Source of the DNA: a virus
Taxonomy: Duplodnaviria > Heunggongvirae > Uroviricota > Caudoviricetes
Length of the DNA stretch: 44,196 nucleotides
Direction: 5' to 3' (one strand)
IMG/VR virus record: IMGVR_UViG_2778261274_000007
Location: 1 to 44,196 of that record
Below, in pieces: positions 37,113 through 41,875 of this stretch (position 1 is its first letter; every line of letters starts with the position of its first letter). The position numbers and the translations under genes are program-made. Under the pieces are notes generated by a model, which saw only the letters and a list, made by a program, of their open reading frames with translations, had not been told where the DNA came from and did no database searches.

Positions 37113-37667
37113 ATGCTTATTGGCTATGTACGTGTGTCAACAAATGACCAGAACACAGATCTACAACGTAATGCGCTGAACTGTGCAGGATGCGAGCTGA
37201 TTTTTGAAGACAAGATAAGCGGTACAAAGTCCGACAGACCAGGACTGAAAAAGCTGCTCAGGACATTATCGGCAGGTGACACGCTGGTGGTCTGGAAACT
37301 GGACCGACTGGGGCGCAGTATGCGGCATCTTGTCGTGCTGGTGGAGGAGTTGCGCGAACGAGGCATCAACTTTCGTAGTCTGACGGATTCAATTGATACC
37401 AGTACCCCAATGGGGCGCTTTTTCTTTCATGTGATGGGTGCCCTGGCTGAAATGGAGCGTGAACTGATTGTTGAACGAACAAAAGCTGGACTGGAAGCTG
37501 CTCGCGCACAGGGACGAATTGGTGGACGTCGTCCCAAACTTACACCAGAACAATGGGCGCAGGCCGGGCGATTAATTGCATCAGGCGTTCCTCGCCAGAA
37601 GGTGGCGATCATCTATGATGTTGGTATATCGACACTGTATAAGAAGTTTTCGGTCGGAGATAAATGA
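37113..37667 (+). CDS. pin: Serine DNA invertase, Pin/Gin/Hin family (184 aa)
   Basis: MLIGYVRVSTNDQ catalytic-serine motif; C-terminal HTH; adjacent to the invertible segment. Confidence 0.85.
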   Translation: MLIGYVRVSTNDQNTDLQRNALNCAGCELIFEDKISGTKSDRPGLKKLLRTLSAGDTLVVWKLDRLGRSMRHLVVLVEELRERGINFRSLTDSIDTSTPMGRFFFHVMGALAEMERELIVERTKAGLEAARAQGRIGGRRPKLTPEQWAQAGRLIASGVPRQKVAIIYDVGISTLYKKFSVGDK

Positions 37668-37704
37668 AACCGTAGCACGTCGTATGCAAGATCGTGCTGC
37701 GGTT
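37665..37704. repeat. Direct repeat copy 1 (imperfect palindromic stem-loop) at the left edge of the nuclease/R-M cassette
   Basis: TGAAACCGTAGCACGTCGTATGCAAGATCGTGCTGCGGTT; near-identical copy at 41835..41875. Confidence 0.5.
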
Positions 37705-37724
37705 TATGCTTATCACTTAAAGAC

Positions 37725-38498
37725 TCAAAAATTAGGTGAGTAACGGACCGGGGACATAGCTCCTTTTTTTCTTAATTCATCTGGTATTTTTTTTCCAAGA
37801 TAAAGATTTGCTATTTCAGGTGGGGCTTCTCGACCTTCAAAACCATAGCGAGAACTTTGTGTTGCCTCAAAGTCAGGATCCTCGTCCCAGTATTTCATCG
37901 TAGGGAAATTTTCACGTGTTGATTTGAGCCATTTATCAGCAATGAAAACCCCTCGAACGATCCCCCTTACAGTAGCAAGAATGACTTCTGCTTGGCTGGC
38001 GCGAGAGACATTAATGCGCCAGCTAAATCGAACCGCATCATAAAGCTCTGAATCCTTTGCACTTCTGTTAACGGAAATCATTAATGCTTTATGATGAAAT
38101 ATTATGGTTTCGGGTTGATATGTTGCTATCAACTCTTTGACATGCGCGGCGCCGAATTCATTGCTGCCAGCACCATTCATGATATTCGTTAACCCAGGGT
38201 AGGCATCAATAAGTGCAGCTTCAACTTCGTACGCCGTCTTTTCATCAGTCATTCCGTGTCGATGGATGACATGGATAACTTCAAGTCCTGCTAACCTTAT
38301 TTCTCTAATTTGCTTTAGCTTGTTGCTCAGTAACTCGTCATCATCAGTCGCTGCCACTTCACCGCGCATATGGGCAAATACGCGGTTACCTTTGCCTTTC
38401 CCTACATAGAAGGTGCTTCCGTCCCTCGGATCAATCAATCGGTATACATACCAGCCAAGGTGTTCAATTACTCCAGAAGGAAACTCAGTAATATCCAT
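37725..38498 (-). CDS. GIY-YIG nuclease-domain protein (257 aa), free-standing
   Basis: N-terminal GWYVYRL...[14 protein letters not shown] matches the GIY-YIG core; C-terminal domain unknown; AT-rich. Confidence 0.55.
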
Positions 38499-38904
38499 TT
38501 TGCAATATCTATGAAGAATTATTTGTGAGACGTATATTAATGATCATTGCAAGGGCTCACAACCAGTAGTGTTGAGAAAACCATCGGAGAAATGAGGCTA
38601 AGCCTTTGAATTTACATAGTACAAAAAAGATACTTTTCCTCATAATGTGAGCTAATTTTATGTTTCGTTTGATGATTGGACCGGTCTCGAAAACCGTAGA
38701 CACATAGTATGCGTTAATTTATGAACAAACTACTTGTCTGCTGTTTTTCTGTCATTAGTCGTATATAGAATGATTCTCTATGCCTAACAAAGCATCACCA
38801 GTGCTAGATTACGTTGTAGTCACTGTTTAAATATCCAGATAAAACATTTCCTTCTGGGTTGAATGAGTGATAAAGTTTCACCCATTAGACCCCTTGGAGG
38901 AATT

Positions 38905-40338
38905 ATGTCTGAATTTGAAGTGTTGGCACAGCATCTGCTGAAGGAAGCCGAGGCGGAAGAAAAGCTGCGACAGGAAAATGATAAAAAGCTTATCGAGAAA
39001 GTGCTGGAAATCTATGATCAGAAGTATGTGGCTGAATTACTGAGAAAAGTCGGAAAAAATGAGTGGAGCCGTGAAACCATTAACCGCTGGATTAATGGCA
39101 AGTGTTTACCAAAATCGTTGACTTCAGTAGAAGAGTCTCTTCTGCGTAAGATGCTACCAGAACCACCTGCAAACCATCCGGAATATGCTTTCCGCTTCAT
39201 TGACTTATTTGCTGGAATTGGAGGGATACGGAAAGGTTTTGAGGCCATTGGAGGCCAGTGTGTTTTTACCAGTGAATGGAATAAAGATGCTGTGCGTACA
39301 TACAAGGCCAACTGGTTTAACGATGAACAGGTGCATAAATTCAATCTCGATATTCGGGAAGTCACGCTGAGTGATAAAACCGATGTATTGGAAACGGATG
39401 CTTATGCATATATTGATGAGCATGTGCCGGATCATGATGTGCTTCTTGCGGGGTTCCCGTGCCAGCCATTTAGCCTTGCTGGTGTTAGTAAGAAAAACTC
39501 ACTTGGTCGTGCGCATGGTTTTGAATGTGAAGCACAAGGAACACTTTTTTTTGACGTGGCACGTATTATACGAGCAAAAAAACCGGCAATTTTTGTGCTG
39601 GAAAATGTCAAAAATCTGAAGAGCCATGATAAGGGTAAAACTTTCAAAGTCATTATGGAGACCCTTGACGAGCTGGGCTACGAAGTTGCCGATGCTGCAG
39701 AAATGGGAAAAAACGATCCAAAGATTATCGATGGGAAGCATTTTTTGCCTCAGCATCGTGAACGCATTGTTCTGGTCGGATTTAGACGAGATCTGAATAT
39801 TCACAAGGGGTTTACCTTGCGTGATATCAGTCGTTTTTATCCGGAACACCGCCCATCATTTGGTGAATTGCTGGAGCCTGTAGTCGACAGTAAATATATA
39901 CTTACGCCAAAACTATGGGAGTACCTTTATAACTACGCCAAAAAGCATGCAGCCAAGGGGAATGGTTTTGGCTTTGGGTTGGTCAATCCTGAGAATAAGG
40001 AAAGCATTGCACGCACACTTTCTGCCAGATATCACAAAGACGGATCAGAAATTCTTATTGATCGTGGTTGGGATATGGCAACGGGAGAGGCTGACTTTAT
40101 GAATGAGAGTAATCAGGCTCGTCGACCACGCAGGCTGACTCCCCGAGAGTGCGCACGCCTTATGGGATTTGAAAAACCTGGAGGGAAACCATTCCGTATT
40201 CCGGTTTCAGATACTCAGTCATATCGGCAGTTCGGTAACTCAGTTGTGGTGCCAGTATTTGAAGCTGTTGCCAGACTTCTGGAACCCTATATCCTCAAAG
40301 CTGTTTCTGCTGATGCTGGTAAGACTGGGCAGCCTTGA
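38905..40338 (+). CDS. ecoRIIM: DNA C5-cytosine methyltransferase, Dcm / M.EcoRII family (477 aa from internal Met)
   Basis: Motifs I ([10 protein letters not shown]), IV (GFPCQPFS) and VI (ENVKNL); close resemblance to E. coli Dcm; GGAGG RBS at 38896. Confidence 0.8.
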
Positions 40339-40372
40339 GAACATCTCCCGGCCTTTTAAGCCGGGAGTCAGC

Positions 40373-41587
40373 CTATGATAGTTCAGCGTAAAGCTCTATC
40401 AGCTCAGTAATGAATGCTCCGAGCGTTATTAATTCTTCTCTAACTGCTTCTGGGTATTTTTTATGTAAAGTTGATGGTACAACGAGTCTGACACCCGCAT
40501 CTTTCATTTCTCGGTATTGTGCTGAAGAAACACCTTCTTGCAGTGTAAATAAATGTACCTGATGGATTTTATCTGCTTCATTCAGTATCTGACGCCAGCG
40601 ATCTTTGCAGGTGGTCTTTACTGCCAGCATACGTAAGTTTTCTACAGGAAATTCAACGTTATGATATGCCTCTGCTGAAGGAAACAGGAAATCTGGTTTT
40701 TTATTACCTTCAGTAACTGCCTGAGTGGAGAAATGCCGTAGTCCGTGCTCGATAAAAAGCTTCTCTAGGTGAAGTTCAAGTGATTTGCCTGCCCTTGATT
40801 TACGTCGATTACTGACAGAGTTGGCTAATGCAATAAACTCATCTACAGAATCGAATCCTTTCTTAATAATATCAAGAACATGTAATTCCTCGACGAGTAG
40901 AAAAATATCATACTCGACACGCCGACGGTCAATCAGTTGCTCATCTGGATCCTTGGAGTTTTTAGCATAATGGCCAGCAGCATATTGAATAATTTCGTTT
41001 CCAGAAGGAAAACGCTTCTTCCAGTCTTCAGGAATAACATATTTATGATTTACTGGAGTTTGCTGAAGAGACAATCCGCCCAAAATTTGTCCGGCAGGGC
41101 CGGAAATTAGGGTTCCAGGTATGATTTCGCCAATAGCAGACTCGATGATATCCTCTTCATCGGGATTGACGCAGACCCATATATCTACCTCGGAACAGTC
41201 AGTGTTCTGTTCGTTTAACCTGAAAGCAAGAATTGTGAGGGCTCCTGTATTTTCAGGGTTCTGTAATGGACTTCCTCTCCCCCAGCGCGTAATTCTTTTT
41301 TCGTTTCGGGTCTTACCAAAATAACGGTTGTTGTAATAAATTGCGCGTGCTTGGGTATCAGGGCAATCATGGGATGATACATGCGCAGTAAGGAAGACTG
41401 AAGGGTTCAGTTCGCGAGTATGATTGATAGATGGAAAAAGCTTTTCAACGATATTTGAGGGGATATAAAGTCCGACCTGATGGCCACCTGTTGCGCCTGT
41501 GTCGTTTGCAGAAAGGCGTTTGATGTAGATAAAGTAATTCCCGCTTGCGATATCAAGCAGCCAGTTATGAAAAACCGACATATACAT
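40373..41587 (-). CDS. ecoRIIR: Type IIE restriction endonuclease, EcoRII-like (404 aa)
   Basis: Convergent with the Dcm-family methyltransferase; length and N-terminal sequence consistent with R.EcoRII as recalled. Confidence 0.7.
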   Translation of the reverse strand: MYMSVFHNWLLDIASGNYFIYIKRLSANDTGATGGHQVGLYIPSNIVEKLFPSINHTRELNPSVFLTAHVSSHDCPDTQARAIYYNNRYFGKTRNEKRITRWGRGSPLQNPENTGALTILAFRLNEQNTDCSEVDIWVCVNPDEEDIIESAIGEIIPGTLISGPAGQILGGLSLQQTPVNHKYVIPEDWKKRFPSGNEIIQYAAGHYAKNSKDPDEQLIDRRRVEYDIFLLVEELHVLDIIKKGFDSVDEFIALANSVSNRRKSRAGKSLELHLEKLFIEHGLRHFSTQAVTEGNKKPDFLFPSAEAYHNVEFPVENLRMLAVKTTCKDRWRQILNEADKIHQVHLFTLQEGVSSAQYREMKDAGVRLVVPSTLHKKYPEAVREELITLGAFITELIELYAELS

Positions 41588-41667
41588 CCCTTTGTTAACA
41601 TACAGTCAGGGTTAACATTTTTCCATAGTTATAGATAAGCGGCTAGGAACTTAAGGGAAAAACAAAA

Positions 41668-41690
41668 AGCCCGCATAAGCGGGCTTTTGT
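41668..41690 (-). terminator. Rho-independent terminator (strong on the minus strand)
   Basis: AGCCCGC-ATAA-GCGGGCT hairpin; minus strand followed by TTTTTGTTTTT. Confidence 0.4.
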
Positions 41691-41834
41691 GTCACTCGAG
41701 AGCCGCGGCTCCTTTGCGTATCCTTTTTTGTCTCCTCACCGTCTGGTCGGTGTCCTGCTGAGACTGCTAACTTCCTGTTTTTGTTGGTGTTGTCCTTACA
41801 CCGTCCAATCATGATTGGTGGAGCTGGCGGGAGT

Positions 41835-41875
41835 TGAAACCGCAGCCACGTCGTATGCAAGAACGTGCTGCGGTT
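41835..41875. repeat. Direct repeat copy 2 (stem-loop) at the right edge of the nuclease/R-M cassette
   Basis: TGAAACCGCAGCCACGTCGTATGCAAGAACGTGCTGCGGTT; arms AACCGCAGC / GCTGCGGTT are self-complementary. Confidence 0.5.

Follow-up and report, generated by a model that had tools for sequence, protein, structure and literature searches.

The right end of the prophage studied here most probably consists of two fused attachment-site-proximal cargo arms (probability roughly 0.7), with a conserved hairpin as module-end boundary, which occurs more than once here because a copy came in with each of the joined modules. The block at 37665-41838 is the defence-carrying end of an ssrA-integrating sister phage and not a self-mobile cassette.

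A thrW prophage with two hairpin copies at its right end

The window, i.e. the whole stretch of 44,196 nucleotides that was analysed, is E. coli chromosomal DNA with 100% identity to strain DP051. The tRNA-Thr gene thrW holds a 40.9-kb prophage, whose limits are set by attL and attR, an exact 47-nt direct repeat of the thrW 3' end. Its content combines a Mu-like baseplate and tail with a lambdoid early region. The features considered below are the following:

1369-1444: thrW gene, tRNA-Thr(CGU) (ARAGORN and Rfam)
1399-1445, + strand: attL core, 3' part of thrW (47-nt exact repeat with 42234-42280)
1459-2622, - strand: prophage tyrosine integrase of thrW specificity (Pfam Phage_integrase, E 3e-48)
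35090-37051: Pin-invertible tail-fibre segment, with 20-nt inverted crossover sites at 35090-35109 and 37032-37051
37077-37667, + strand: pin DNA invertase, a serine recombinase (Pfam Resolvase and HTH_7; annotated pinE in relatives)
37665-37704: hairpin copy 1 (HP1), between the convergent pin and PD-T4-3 genes, flanked by an A-tract (left) and a T-rich tail (right)
37725-38498, - strand: PD-T4-3/CMoRE, single-gene type IV restriction enzyme with a GIY-YIG nuclease (PADLOC PD-T4-3, E 5e-140; PDB 9u75, E 2e-171)
38689-38785: decayed third hairpin (38689-38712) followed by a decayed arm copy (positional homology with loci L053 and L091)
38905-40338, + strand: C5 cytosine methyltransferase, EcoRII partner (Pfam DNA_methylase, E 4e-78, and DNA_meth_N; PADLOC MTase_II, E 4e-230)
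40373-41587, - strand: EcoRII restriction endonuclease (PDB 1na6, E 3e-243, residues 1-403; Pfam EcoRII-N and EcoRII-C)
41664-41815: attachment-site arm (flank) of ssrA-integrating phages, about 155 nt, opening with a terminator hairpin at 41665-41688
41816-41838, - strand: fossil of the last 23 nt of ssrA (tmRNA), an exact match to the ssrA 3' end
41835-41875: hairpin copy 2 (HP2), left end of a conserved hairpin-arm module
41876-42233: arm from HP2 to attR; the first ~140 nt are a widely shared module, the remainder is specific to thrW-type prophages
42234-42280, + strand: attR core, copy of the thrW 3' end (exact repeat with attL)

The Pin crossover sites form an inverted repeat with 95% complementarity, between which tail-fibre and assembly ORFs are oppositely oriented. 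In RefSeq relatives, the pin start lies 36 nt further in.

The original prediction of direct repeats of about 40 bp, each an imperfect palindrome, was confirmed. HP1 (TGAAACCGTAGCACGTCGTATGCAAGATCGTGCTGCGGTT, 40 nt) starts with the TGA stop codon of pin, HP2 (TGAAACCGCAGCCACGTCGTATGCAAGAACGTGCTGCGGTT) has 41 nt, and the two copies differ by two mismatches and one inserted base across 41 columns. Folding gives 12-bp stems for both, with energies of -23.6 kcal/mol (z -5.2) on the + strand and -17.4 on the - strand for HP1, and of -24.4 and -20.0 kcal/mol, respectively, for HP2. A 29-nt core pattern with up to 3 mismatches hits the window at these two sites only and gives no hit in 100 shuffles; with a hairpin covariance model, HP1 scores 58 bits and HP2 75 bits (74.7), the next match on the + strand of the window being at 15 bits.

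The two copies were also thought to flank exactly an AT-rich block of nuclease and EcoRII genes. The block is indeed AT-rich (35-48% GC versus 50-59% in the tail genes at its left), but HP2 is not adjacent to the endonuclease gene: the 247 nt between them (41588-41834) are made of a terminator, the ssrA-type att arm and the 23-nt ssrA fossil, and a third decayed hairpin lies inside the block.

The block is the end of an ssrA-integrating phage

We compared the window with prophages integrated in ssrA. An identical block directly adjoins intact ssrA in M37H, H1827/12, S13 and SA186, and 129 E. coli genomes have the order R.EcoRII, arm, intact ssrA; the block, which closes with a fossil of the ssrA att core, is the terminal arm of ssrA-integrating phages, and this does not fit a discrete cassette. 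The arm at 41664-41815 shares 99-100% identity with the stretch between EcoRII and intact ssrA in M37H and SA186 and about 92% with the native DNA that follows ssrA, and its left boundary is identical in every other cargo context. The SA186 prophage lies between two copies of the ssrA core with an arm homologue after each; since the copy inside the prophage is closer to the window (99.6% identity) than the one outside (91.7%), the window arm is phage attP DNA. The M37H prophage is 93-98.7% identical to the window over most of its length, and the integrase modules are unrelated, the thrW integrase having no relationship with that of the ssrA-integrated sister. Homology with the ssrA-integrated prophages stops at 41843, inside HP2; these relatives contain the block with the first hairpin only, and ssrA where the second would be. 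The M37H att repeat is a 30-nt block centred on the T-arm, and the A/G difference that the distal SA186 copy shows to the left of the T-stem locates the crossover to the T-stem or to a point 3' of it.

As had been proposed, the block is an indel relative to a related prophage: E. coli EC31 contains pin, a single hairpin, the same arm (405 of 405 nt identical) and a thrW attR, as if the entire block had been lost precisely from hairpin to hairpin. Many genomes match pin, the hairpin and 140 nt of arm and diverge thereafter; among the 5322 genomes matching some part of the query, all the top-listed matches have pin, hairpin and ~140-nt arm free of the cassette. HP2 is likewise not tied to the cassette, since its junction with the fossil is found in 367 genomes, only 108 of which have EcoRII. 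Both hairpins therefore exist without it, an outcome that had been named beforehand as refuting the cassette. The idea of one discrete cassette, acquired by capture or duplication of a hairpin, is not supported: at least two independent modules are present, PD-T4-3 with hairpins of its own and EcoRII accompanied by the ssrA-type attP arm.

The hairpin marks module ends in many contexts

PD-T4-3/CMoRE targets DNA containing 5hmC or glucosyl-5hmC (PMC12923530). The gene, present in 756 genomes, has its own hairpin boundaries, and in loci L053, L091 and L123 two intact hairpins, 1024 nt apart, bracket it. In L053 and L091, an intact hairpin and arm stand at exactly the point corresponding to 38689, after ~200 nt at 95% identity; taken alone, the third hairpin of the window is not significant with the covariance model (9.1 bits). 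Novel joints lie exactly at both hairpin bases and in some genomes PD-T4-3 is bracketed by two intact copies, a picture that a hairpin-directed process would also give.

Among 94 instances of the hairpin in the fetched loci, we observed 21 left-context clusters (about 15 after merging the variants of the pin and ssrA-fossil contexts) and only 9 right-context clusters, two of which dominate, the arm (at least 62 instances) and the PD-T4-3 3' end (23). The left context often ends with a stop codon, and the HP2 variant recurs in many other contexts. The stem is 91% paired and compensatory changes in three pairs exceed all 500 shuffles. The hairpin is also the terminal 3' hairpin of CssrB (Rfam RF02799, chromosome-encoded Shigella sRNA B; 151.6 bits in L067) and corresponds to the last 40 positions of that model. 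Unlike CssrB, the window has the hairpin only, without the 140-nt body, and both copies are far below the family threshold of 76 (HP1, 31.5 bits, E 0.001; HP2, 24.2 bits), so the window contains no CssrB gene. In SKA5 and KE51, the hairpin lies ~65 nt downstream of dinI-like genes.

The hairpin is a conserved structured element of ~40 nt that would mark transcript ends, probably with terminator activity; it looks like a shared terminator-like element found at module ends and mosaic joints of E. coli prophages. Between pin and PD-T4-3 this putative terminator would be bidirectional, and elsewhere it would act after leftward dinI-like genes or as the CssrB 3' end. A simple terminator scan did not flag the hairpin, and HP2 has no U-tract on the + strand. 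The many left contexts against essentially two right ones fit a terminator owned by the unit on its right.

Alternatively, the hairpin could be a dedicated recombination site, attC-like or of another hairpin-forming type, moving defence genes as hairpin-bounded cassettes in the interval between pin and att. The exact joints with many neighbours on both sides of its base, the two intact copies around PD-T4-3, the apparently precise loss in EC31 with a 100% identical arm and the structural selection on the stem would agree with this proposal, as would the likeness to integron cassettes, in which direct-orientation imperfect palindromes bracket accessory genes. We nevertheless consider it unlikely. 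The only recombinases nearby are Pin, which has its own sites (35090 and 37032), and two att-site integrases; unlike integron cassettes, the window has no IntI and no attC core sites (the ends GTTGGCT and GTTTATG do not fit GTTRRRY), the block's three genes point in both directions, have signals of their own and are accompanied by an att arm, and context diversity is asymmetric. In addition, an attP arm and an ssrA fossil are unexpected in a cassette, and 3 of 41 positions are not the same in HP1 and HP2. PD-T4-3 is the only cargo bracketed by the hairpin, the other cargo lying beyond the 140-nt arm.

The fossil-hairpin junction is old and widespread

The ssrA fossil spans the acceptor 3' strand, the 3' half of the T-stem and the T-loop, in which it stops, and its final 4 nt are the first 4 nt of HP2. 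When the ssrA T-arm (TGAACCCGC) is aligned with the hairpin base (TGAAACCGC), the join falls inside a 9-nt near-identity with 8 of 9 bases shared. Of 5426 genomes, 367 have this junction, which occurs at thrW, yecD and sit/Rac sites and also with other cargo; the 108 genomes with EcoRII have the order R.EcoRII, arm, fossil, hairpin, arm. As decayed junctions also occur, and as it is found at several sites and with several cargoes, the junction is old and was spread by recombination. In a second variant (GAACCCGCAGAC), found in ECE313, L016 and L022, the switch is shifted by 5 nt to the right. One fixed cleavage point would not give this, except if that base belongs to the overlap or if mutation or conversion followed.

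Could this junction be a working attP or attR of an ssrA phage whose integrase-side arm starts at the hairpin, giving the window prophage two attachment sites? Its frequency and the near-intact inverted repeat of the T-arm (GCGGG-AGTTGAA-ACCGC, CCCGC in some copies) would be compatible with such a role, and in the IMG/VR contig L030 a P4-like integrase with the ssrA-side arm adjoins the fossil-hairpin, as if it were an island target. However, a chimeric query (native ypjA, arm, core, hairpin, arm) matched 0 of 5426 genomes and the junction is never at the ssrA locus; the sampled junctions are at the att-distal cargo end of thrW, yecD and sit prophages without an adjacent ssrA-type integrase, the core is mutated or deleted in many copies (e.g. 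TGGCGGGGGCGGGCGGAGTT, TGGTGGGCT), and no complete genome has a junction like that of L030, which may result from chimeric assembly. We regard this role as very improbable. Duplication in place when the block was inserted, of the target site or in local tandem, is hardly credible: the direct orientation and the single copy at the EC31 empty site would suit it, but no transposase is present, ssrA replaces the second copy in the ssrA-integrated relatives, and the two substitutions and one indel between the hairpin copies, set against a block that is 98-100% identical among 71 genomes, indicate different hairpin lineages, HP1 and HP2 each matching a different widespread one.

A proposed origin by fusion of two phage ends

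To return to the fusion of two cargo arms, the layout after pin in this phage family is hairpin, short arm, cargo slot, attP arm and attP core. In this reading, the ssrA-type sister contributed 37665-41838 (HP1, PD-T4-3/CMoRE, decayed hairpin and arm, EcoRII M and R genes, attP arm, ssrA core up to the T-loop), and a thrW-type phage 41835-42280 (HP2, arm, thrW attP arm and core). Probably, an ssrA-specific tyrosine integrase recombined attP(ssrA) with a pseudo-site in the genome of a relative, at the base of the hairpin that directly follows pin. In a second step, the duplicated genome and the ssrA integrase would have been lost by homologous recombination, the backbones being 93-98% identical.

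Recombination at secondary sites (pseudo-attB) is known for tyrosine integrases directed at the T-loop of tRNA or tmRNA genes. As in such events, ssrA is retained from its 3' end exactly to the T-loop and 8 of 9 bases of the presumed overlap are also present in the partner; unlike them, the presumed target is within another phage genome rather than the chromosome, and only one of the two hybrid junctions survives. The integrase step is suggested by the position of the join only, and the 9-nt near-identity would serve recombinase-independent or Red/RecA short-homology joining just as well; we slightly favour the integrase over simple short-homology or illegitimate joining.

Relation to known prophage hotspots and mosaicism

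Morons and defence hotspots are known beside the att sites of temperate phages, such as pin-mcrA in e14, the P2 and P4 hotspots and the gtr genes of thrW-integrating Shigella phages. As had been suspected, defence cargo has its site in this region, which resembles them in that accessory genes, AT-rich and equipped with transcription signals of their own, separate the last tail gene or invertase from att, and in a cargo that varies among near-identical prophages (AbiTii with DUF6650, HNH with an AAA ATPase, FRG, RES). As in e14, a restriction enzyme directly follows pin; pin and mcrA are also adjacent in phage vB_EcoM-689R6. The window differs in stacking in tandem two att-proximal arms of different integration specificity, with a fossil half att site at the joint and the same conserved hairpin at the module ends.

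In lambdoid phages, mosaics evolve at conserved boundary sequences, where recombination is relaxed or needs short homology (PMC3945230, PMC2327257). Here too, exchange took place between prophage backbones of 90-98% identity, short conserved sequence flanks the boundaries, and the fossil-hairpin module has spread to thrW, yecD and sit prophages. Unlike in that model, the boundary element is a specific covarying hairpin of 40 nt, and one joint coincides with the att-core crossover region, which points to a site-specific enzyme over general recombination. In these E. coli prophages, the hairpin is a recurrent mosaic boundary.

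The thrW prophage and the features of its right end

The sequence opens with proA and the tRNA-Thr(CGU) gene thrW. An exact 47-nt repeat of the thrW 3' end (1399-1445 and 42234-42280) bounds a prophage of 40.9 kb, in a region 100% identical to E. coli DP051. Directly after attR, the right-hand copy of this repeat, lies a second island, which has a P4-type integrase gene (42455-43669; Arm-DNA-bind_3, Phage_int_M and Phage_integrase domains) and runs on to 44196; two elements therefore stand in tandem at thrW. The features that matter here are the following.

1369-1444, tRNA-Thr(CGU) gene thrW
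1459-2622, prophage integrase gene
37665-37704, first hairpin copy (HP1), TGAAACCGTAGCACGTCGTATGCAAGATCGTGCTGCGGTT, beginning at the TGA stop codon of pin
37725-38498, minus strand, PD-T4-3, renamed CMoRE (PADLOC PDLC04031, E 4.7e-140, residues 1-256 of 256)
38689-38785, decayed hairpin and decayed arm, placed by two relatives (L053 and L091) with an intact hairpin and arm at exactly the same point
38905-40338, plus strand, C5 cytosine methyltransferase, partner of EcoRII (Pfam DNA_methylase)
40373-41587, minus strand, EcoRII endonuclease (PDB 1na6, E 3e-243; Pfam EcoRII-N and EcoRII-C)
41816-41838, ssrA fossil, TGGTGGAGCTGGCGGGAGTTGAA
41835-41875, second hairpin copy (HP2), TGAAACCGCAGCCACGTCGTATGCAAGAACGTGCTGCGGTT

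Elsewhere in the prophage, a 20-nt inverted repeat (35090-35109 and 37032-37051; 95% complementary, AAACCTTGGTTTGGGAGAAG) encloses a 1.9-kb segment of oppositely oriented tail-fibre and assembly genes, the Pin-invertible host-range segment. Five overlapping copies of a repeat with a 15-nt period (TCAAAATCTGACSCR) at 8947-9054, within the ORF 8644-9585, look like replication-origin iterons in an O-like gene. An ORF of 50 codons in the thrW-type arm (42016-42168, plus strand), unannotated in the identical sequence of strain EC31, has a hydrophobic stretch (KKTAALFVVTFIFIGYA) and could encode a small membrane protein.

Two hairpins enclose an AT-rich block of known defence genes

The original prediction had described a direct repeat at 37665 and 41835, each copy an imperfect palindrome, around an AT-rich block, and all of this was borne out. 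In the window, a degenerate 29-mer with up to three mismatches finds HP1 and HP2 only, and it finds nothing in 100 shuffles; by covariance model the two copies score 58 and 75 bits, the next plus-strand match reaching 15 bits. The copies are separated by two substitutions and one inserted base; the fold of each has 12 bp in the stem and 13 nt in the loop, with an energy between -17 and -24 kcal/mol according to strand. The enclosed block has a GC content of 35-48%, versus 50-59% in the tail genes. The third, decayed copy (38689-38712) gains no support from the same search taken by itself (9.1 bits, E 1.9); the case for it rests on positional homology with relatives.

The genes of the block are all already known. 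[quoted passage not shown] Being this characterised enzyme, it is not a Seg-like free-standing homing endonuclease cutting the hairpin. The second system pairs an endonuclease having the EcoRII-N effector and EcoRII-C catalytic domains with the adjacent C5 methyltransferase; judging by its near-identity to EcoRII, it probably recognises CCWGG. As in morons, the genes separate sequences that adjoin each other in a related phage, that of EC31 (pin, one hairpin, arm), and their base composition is unlike that of the surrounding phage genes. Promoter-like matches numbered 14 versus 10.5 expected from shuffles, none of them compelling.

The block ends in a fossil of the ssrA attachment site

Directly left of HP2, the fossil reproduces, as reverse complement, the final 23 nt of ssrA, the tmRNA gene (acceptor strand, 3' half of the T-stem, T-loop), and at its end it overlaps the start of HP2 by four bases. 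In E. coli M37H and H1827/12 we observed pin, hairpin 1, PD-T4-3, both EcoRII genes and the next ~230 nt as in the window, and an intact ssrA body where the window has HP2; homology stops at 41843. Over most of their length, the window prophage and that of M37H, which a 30-nt ssrA repeat delimits, share 93-98.7% identity, and their integrases are unrelated. In strains S13 and SA186, whose prophages are lambda-like siphoviruses without pin, the same block follows the tail-fibre genes and abuts ssrA, and homology with the window begins exactly at the hairpin (37667).

SA186 has two ssrA core copies, and after each comes a homologue of the arm at 41664-41815 (155 nt). Of these homologues, the one within the prophage matches the window at 99.6% identity and the one outside, of native type, at 91.7%; the arm of the window is therefore phage attP DNA. 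A second arm copy was also sought at the far end of the M37H prophage, which is uninformative because the ypjA region is deleted there; SA186 settled the question. An ssrA identity block from the T-arm to the 3' end at both prophage ends is seen in the sister prophages only (M37H and SA186). The window keeps 23 of the 30 nt, the hairpin replacing the right half of the core, and its prophage integrase is of the thrW type, unrelated to the ssrA-type enzyme. The ssrA-type integrases are WP_063082126 in M37H and WP_000531797 in SA186.

Among 5426 complete E. coli genomes, 129 have EcoRII, the arm and an intact ssrA, and 108 have EcoRII, the arm, the fossil, the hairpin and the second arm; the full query (36500-42400) is found in 71. 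The junction of arm, fossil, hairpin and arm is present in 367, at thrW, yecD and sit/Rac loci and beside unrelated cargo, with some fossil copies visibly decayed. It reads GGGAGTTGAA(A/C)CCGCAG, with A and C variants. An exact search in one genome per species returned nothing. A chimeric query of ypjA, arm, core and hairpin matched 0 genomes. Its absence from the ssrA locus marks the junction as a scar, not a functioning att site.

An IMG/VR contig (UViG_2698536560_000011, reverse strand 7403-8851) joins a P4-like integrase gene and an ssrA-side arm to the fossil core and hairpin instead of ssrA. It is either an ssrA island using the fossil as target or a contig chimera, and complete E. coli genomes all lack the junction. 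Downstream of ssrA, strain EC590 (locus L057, 1767-7104) and K-12 carry the arm, the ypjA autotransporter gene, a pin pseudogene and ypjCB, an order that matches the right end of ssrA-type phages. This native region looks like an old remnant of such a phage, ypjA appearing to occupy its cargo slot.

The block is composite and belongs to a family layout

PD-T4-3 occurs in 756 genomes, where homology boundaries fall at the start of hairpin 1 or at the decayed copy. The family therefore has a layout with two slots, in the order pin, hairpin, slot 1 (PD-T4-3, hairpin), arm, slot 2 (cargo), attP arm, core. Two such units stand in tandem in the window, an ssrA-type unit with EcoRII in slot 2 and then a thrW-type unit. 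Slot 2 of the latter is empty here and holds AbiTii and DUF6650, or another gene, in TUM10008 and ECE313.

Another prophage end (L053; IMG/VR UViG_2737471817_000007, reverse strand 9602-12410) has three hairpins, in the order pin, hairpin, PD-T4-3, hairpin, arm, dinI fragment, other cargo, truncated ssrA fossil, hairpin. Sister prophages bear other defence genes at moron sites (M37H, 27316-28727; L004, 4703-8336; L003, 4701-8546; L008, 6783-8230): Kiwa KwaA/KwaB between the Q antiterminator and lysis genes and, after the 140-nt arm, HNH and AAA ATPase genes with an FRG protein, RES NAD+ phosphorylase, or AbiTii and DUF6650.

Origin of the join and loss of the block

The ssrA-type unit ends exactly in the T-loop region of the att core and is joined to the base of the post-pin hairpin of thrW-type phages; the two partners have TGAA-CCGC in common (TGAACCCGC versus TGAAACCGC). 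We favour, with a probability of roughly 55%, a join made by an ssrA-specific integrase. The enzyme would have used attP(ssrA) and, as its partner, a pseudo-site of a related genome, either resident or co-infecting, and homologous recombination between the near-identical backbones would then have discarded the duplicated genome and the ssrA integrase gene. An A/G difference in the distal core of SA186 places the natural crossover at or 3' of the T-stem, consistent with an integrase-made join. Nearly as probable is joining at the same 9-mer by short homology or illegitimate recombination, which the variant junction GAACCCGCAGAC fits slightly better.

As for loss, relatives lacking the block were expected to keep a single repeat copy, and EC31 does so: it has pin (of the M37H allele type), one hairpin identical to HP1, and an arm identical to that of the window at 405 of 405 positions. 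This looks like a precise hairpin-to-hairpin deletion, and therefore the repeats can mediate loss of the block.

The hairpin is a widespread element of Escherichia prophages

All top-listed matches, among 5322 genomes matching some part of the query, have pin, one hairpin and ~140 nt of the arm following HP2, and then other cargo. Among this other cargo are HNH and AAA ATPase, FRG and RES proteins. In 94 instances from the fetched loci, the left contexts form 21 clusters (~15 after merging of variants), often with a stop codon at their end, and the right contexts form 9, dominated by the arm (GGCTGGTGAACTTCCGATAGTGCGAG...) and the PD-T4-3 3' end, one or the other being the right-hand neighbour in 85. 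Searched alone, the hairpin is found in Escherichia and Shigella only, besides two MAG contigs, of which one shares the flanks of an E. coli locus and the other matches the loop and half a stem only. In phage SKA5 and strain KE51 it is placed downstream of leftward dinI-like genes, at a distance of ~65 nt; a search of the arm of the window gave no dinI remnant.

The G+C-rich stem-loop is stable and under selection, with 91% of stem cells paired and compensatory changes at three pairs. HP1 is followed by UUUAUGCUUAU on the plus strand and UUUCAUUUAU on the minus strand; HP2 has UUUCAAC on the minus strand and no U-rich tract on the plus strand. A simple terminator scan flagged neither copy. The Rfam sRNA model CssrB ends with this same hairpin. 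We read the hairpin as a probable terminator-like stem-loop of the unit on its right, which may also serve as a stop signal after pin. The window copies are not CssrB themselves, scoring 31.5 and 24.2 bits (gathering threshold 76), with only model positions 141-180 matched by HP1; a literature search for CssrB gave unrelated matches only. In Shigella flexneri SFBU1023 (L067, 963-1151 and 5575-5757), a full CssrB gene that ends in the hairpin is present, with matches to C4 antisense RNA and isrK a few kb away, within another prophage-like region.

Hotspot, cassette and integron readings

It is improbable, in our estimate, that beyond any terminator role the hairpin is a hotspot of structure-dependent recombination through which defence modules enter Escherichia prophages, are stacked there and are precisely lost. 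Recombination could then be driven by a phage recombinase that works on the hairpin in extruded or single-stranded form, or by att-site integrases for which the hairpin base serves as a pseudo-site. If this were true, the fossil ssrA half-site, carried by 7% of E. coli genomes, would record repeated exchanges of integration modules between phages, driven by integrases.

The idea of a discrete cassette, captured or duplicated through a terminal hairpin, stood in part: there is an indel at the cargo site, and the repeats are able to delete it, as in EC31. Neither the unity of the cassette nor the capture mechanism did. The block is composite, with a decayed hairpin and an arm inside and PD-T4-3 found separately; no dedicated recombinase flanks it, the ends are unlike attC, and only PD-T4-3 is hairpin-bracketed. 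HP1 and HP2 are moreover distinct hairpin lineages, because 3 of 41 positions differ while the block is 98-100% conserved.

An integron attC reading is ruled out: the core RYYYAAC ... GTTRRRY is not fitted (3' ends GTTTATG and GTTGGCT; 5' ends ATGAAAC and TTGAAAC), the contexts are asymmetric, a series of single-gene cassettes each with its own site is not seen, and no IntI-type integrase lies near the array, the sole recombinases in the flanks being the serine invertase Pin and a pair of att-site integrases. Action of Pin on the hairpin is unlikely, as flanks resembling its half-sites (AAACC...GGTTT) are 26 nt apart, not 2, and the true Pin sites lie at 35090-35109 and 37032-37051.

Significance

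The general phenomenon is already known; what is modestly new is the detail of a fossil half att site and of a hairpin boundary that recurs. The closest known cases are secondary-site recombination by integrases that target tRNA or tmRNA genes, morons and defence hotspots beside att sites, the e14 pin-mcrA arrangement being seen among the matches, and lambdoid mosaicism through relaxed homologous recombination (PMC3945230, PMC2327257).

The window offers a dated, sequence-level example of prophages stacking defence systems at their termini. An ssrA-integrating phage contributed its whole att-proximal cargo arm to a phage that integrates at thrW, with a half att site left as the scar, and the graft would pair PD-T4-3/CMoRE against hmC phages with EcoRII against unmodified DNA. 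The hairpin, which is conserved and covarying, confined to Escherichia and Shigella and located at many mosaic joints, is a possible landmark for annotating prophage cargo. If the join was made by an integrase, att-site integrases would contribute to phage mosaicism besides carrying out integration.
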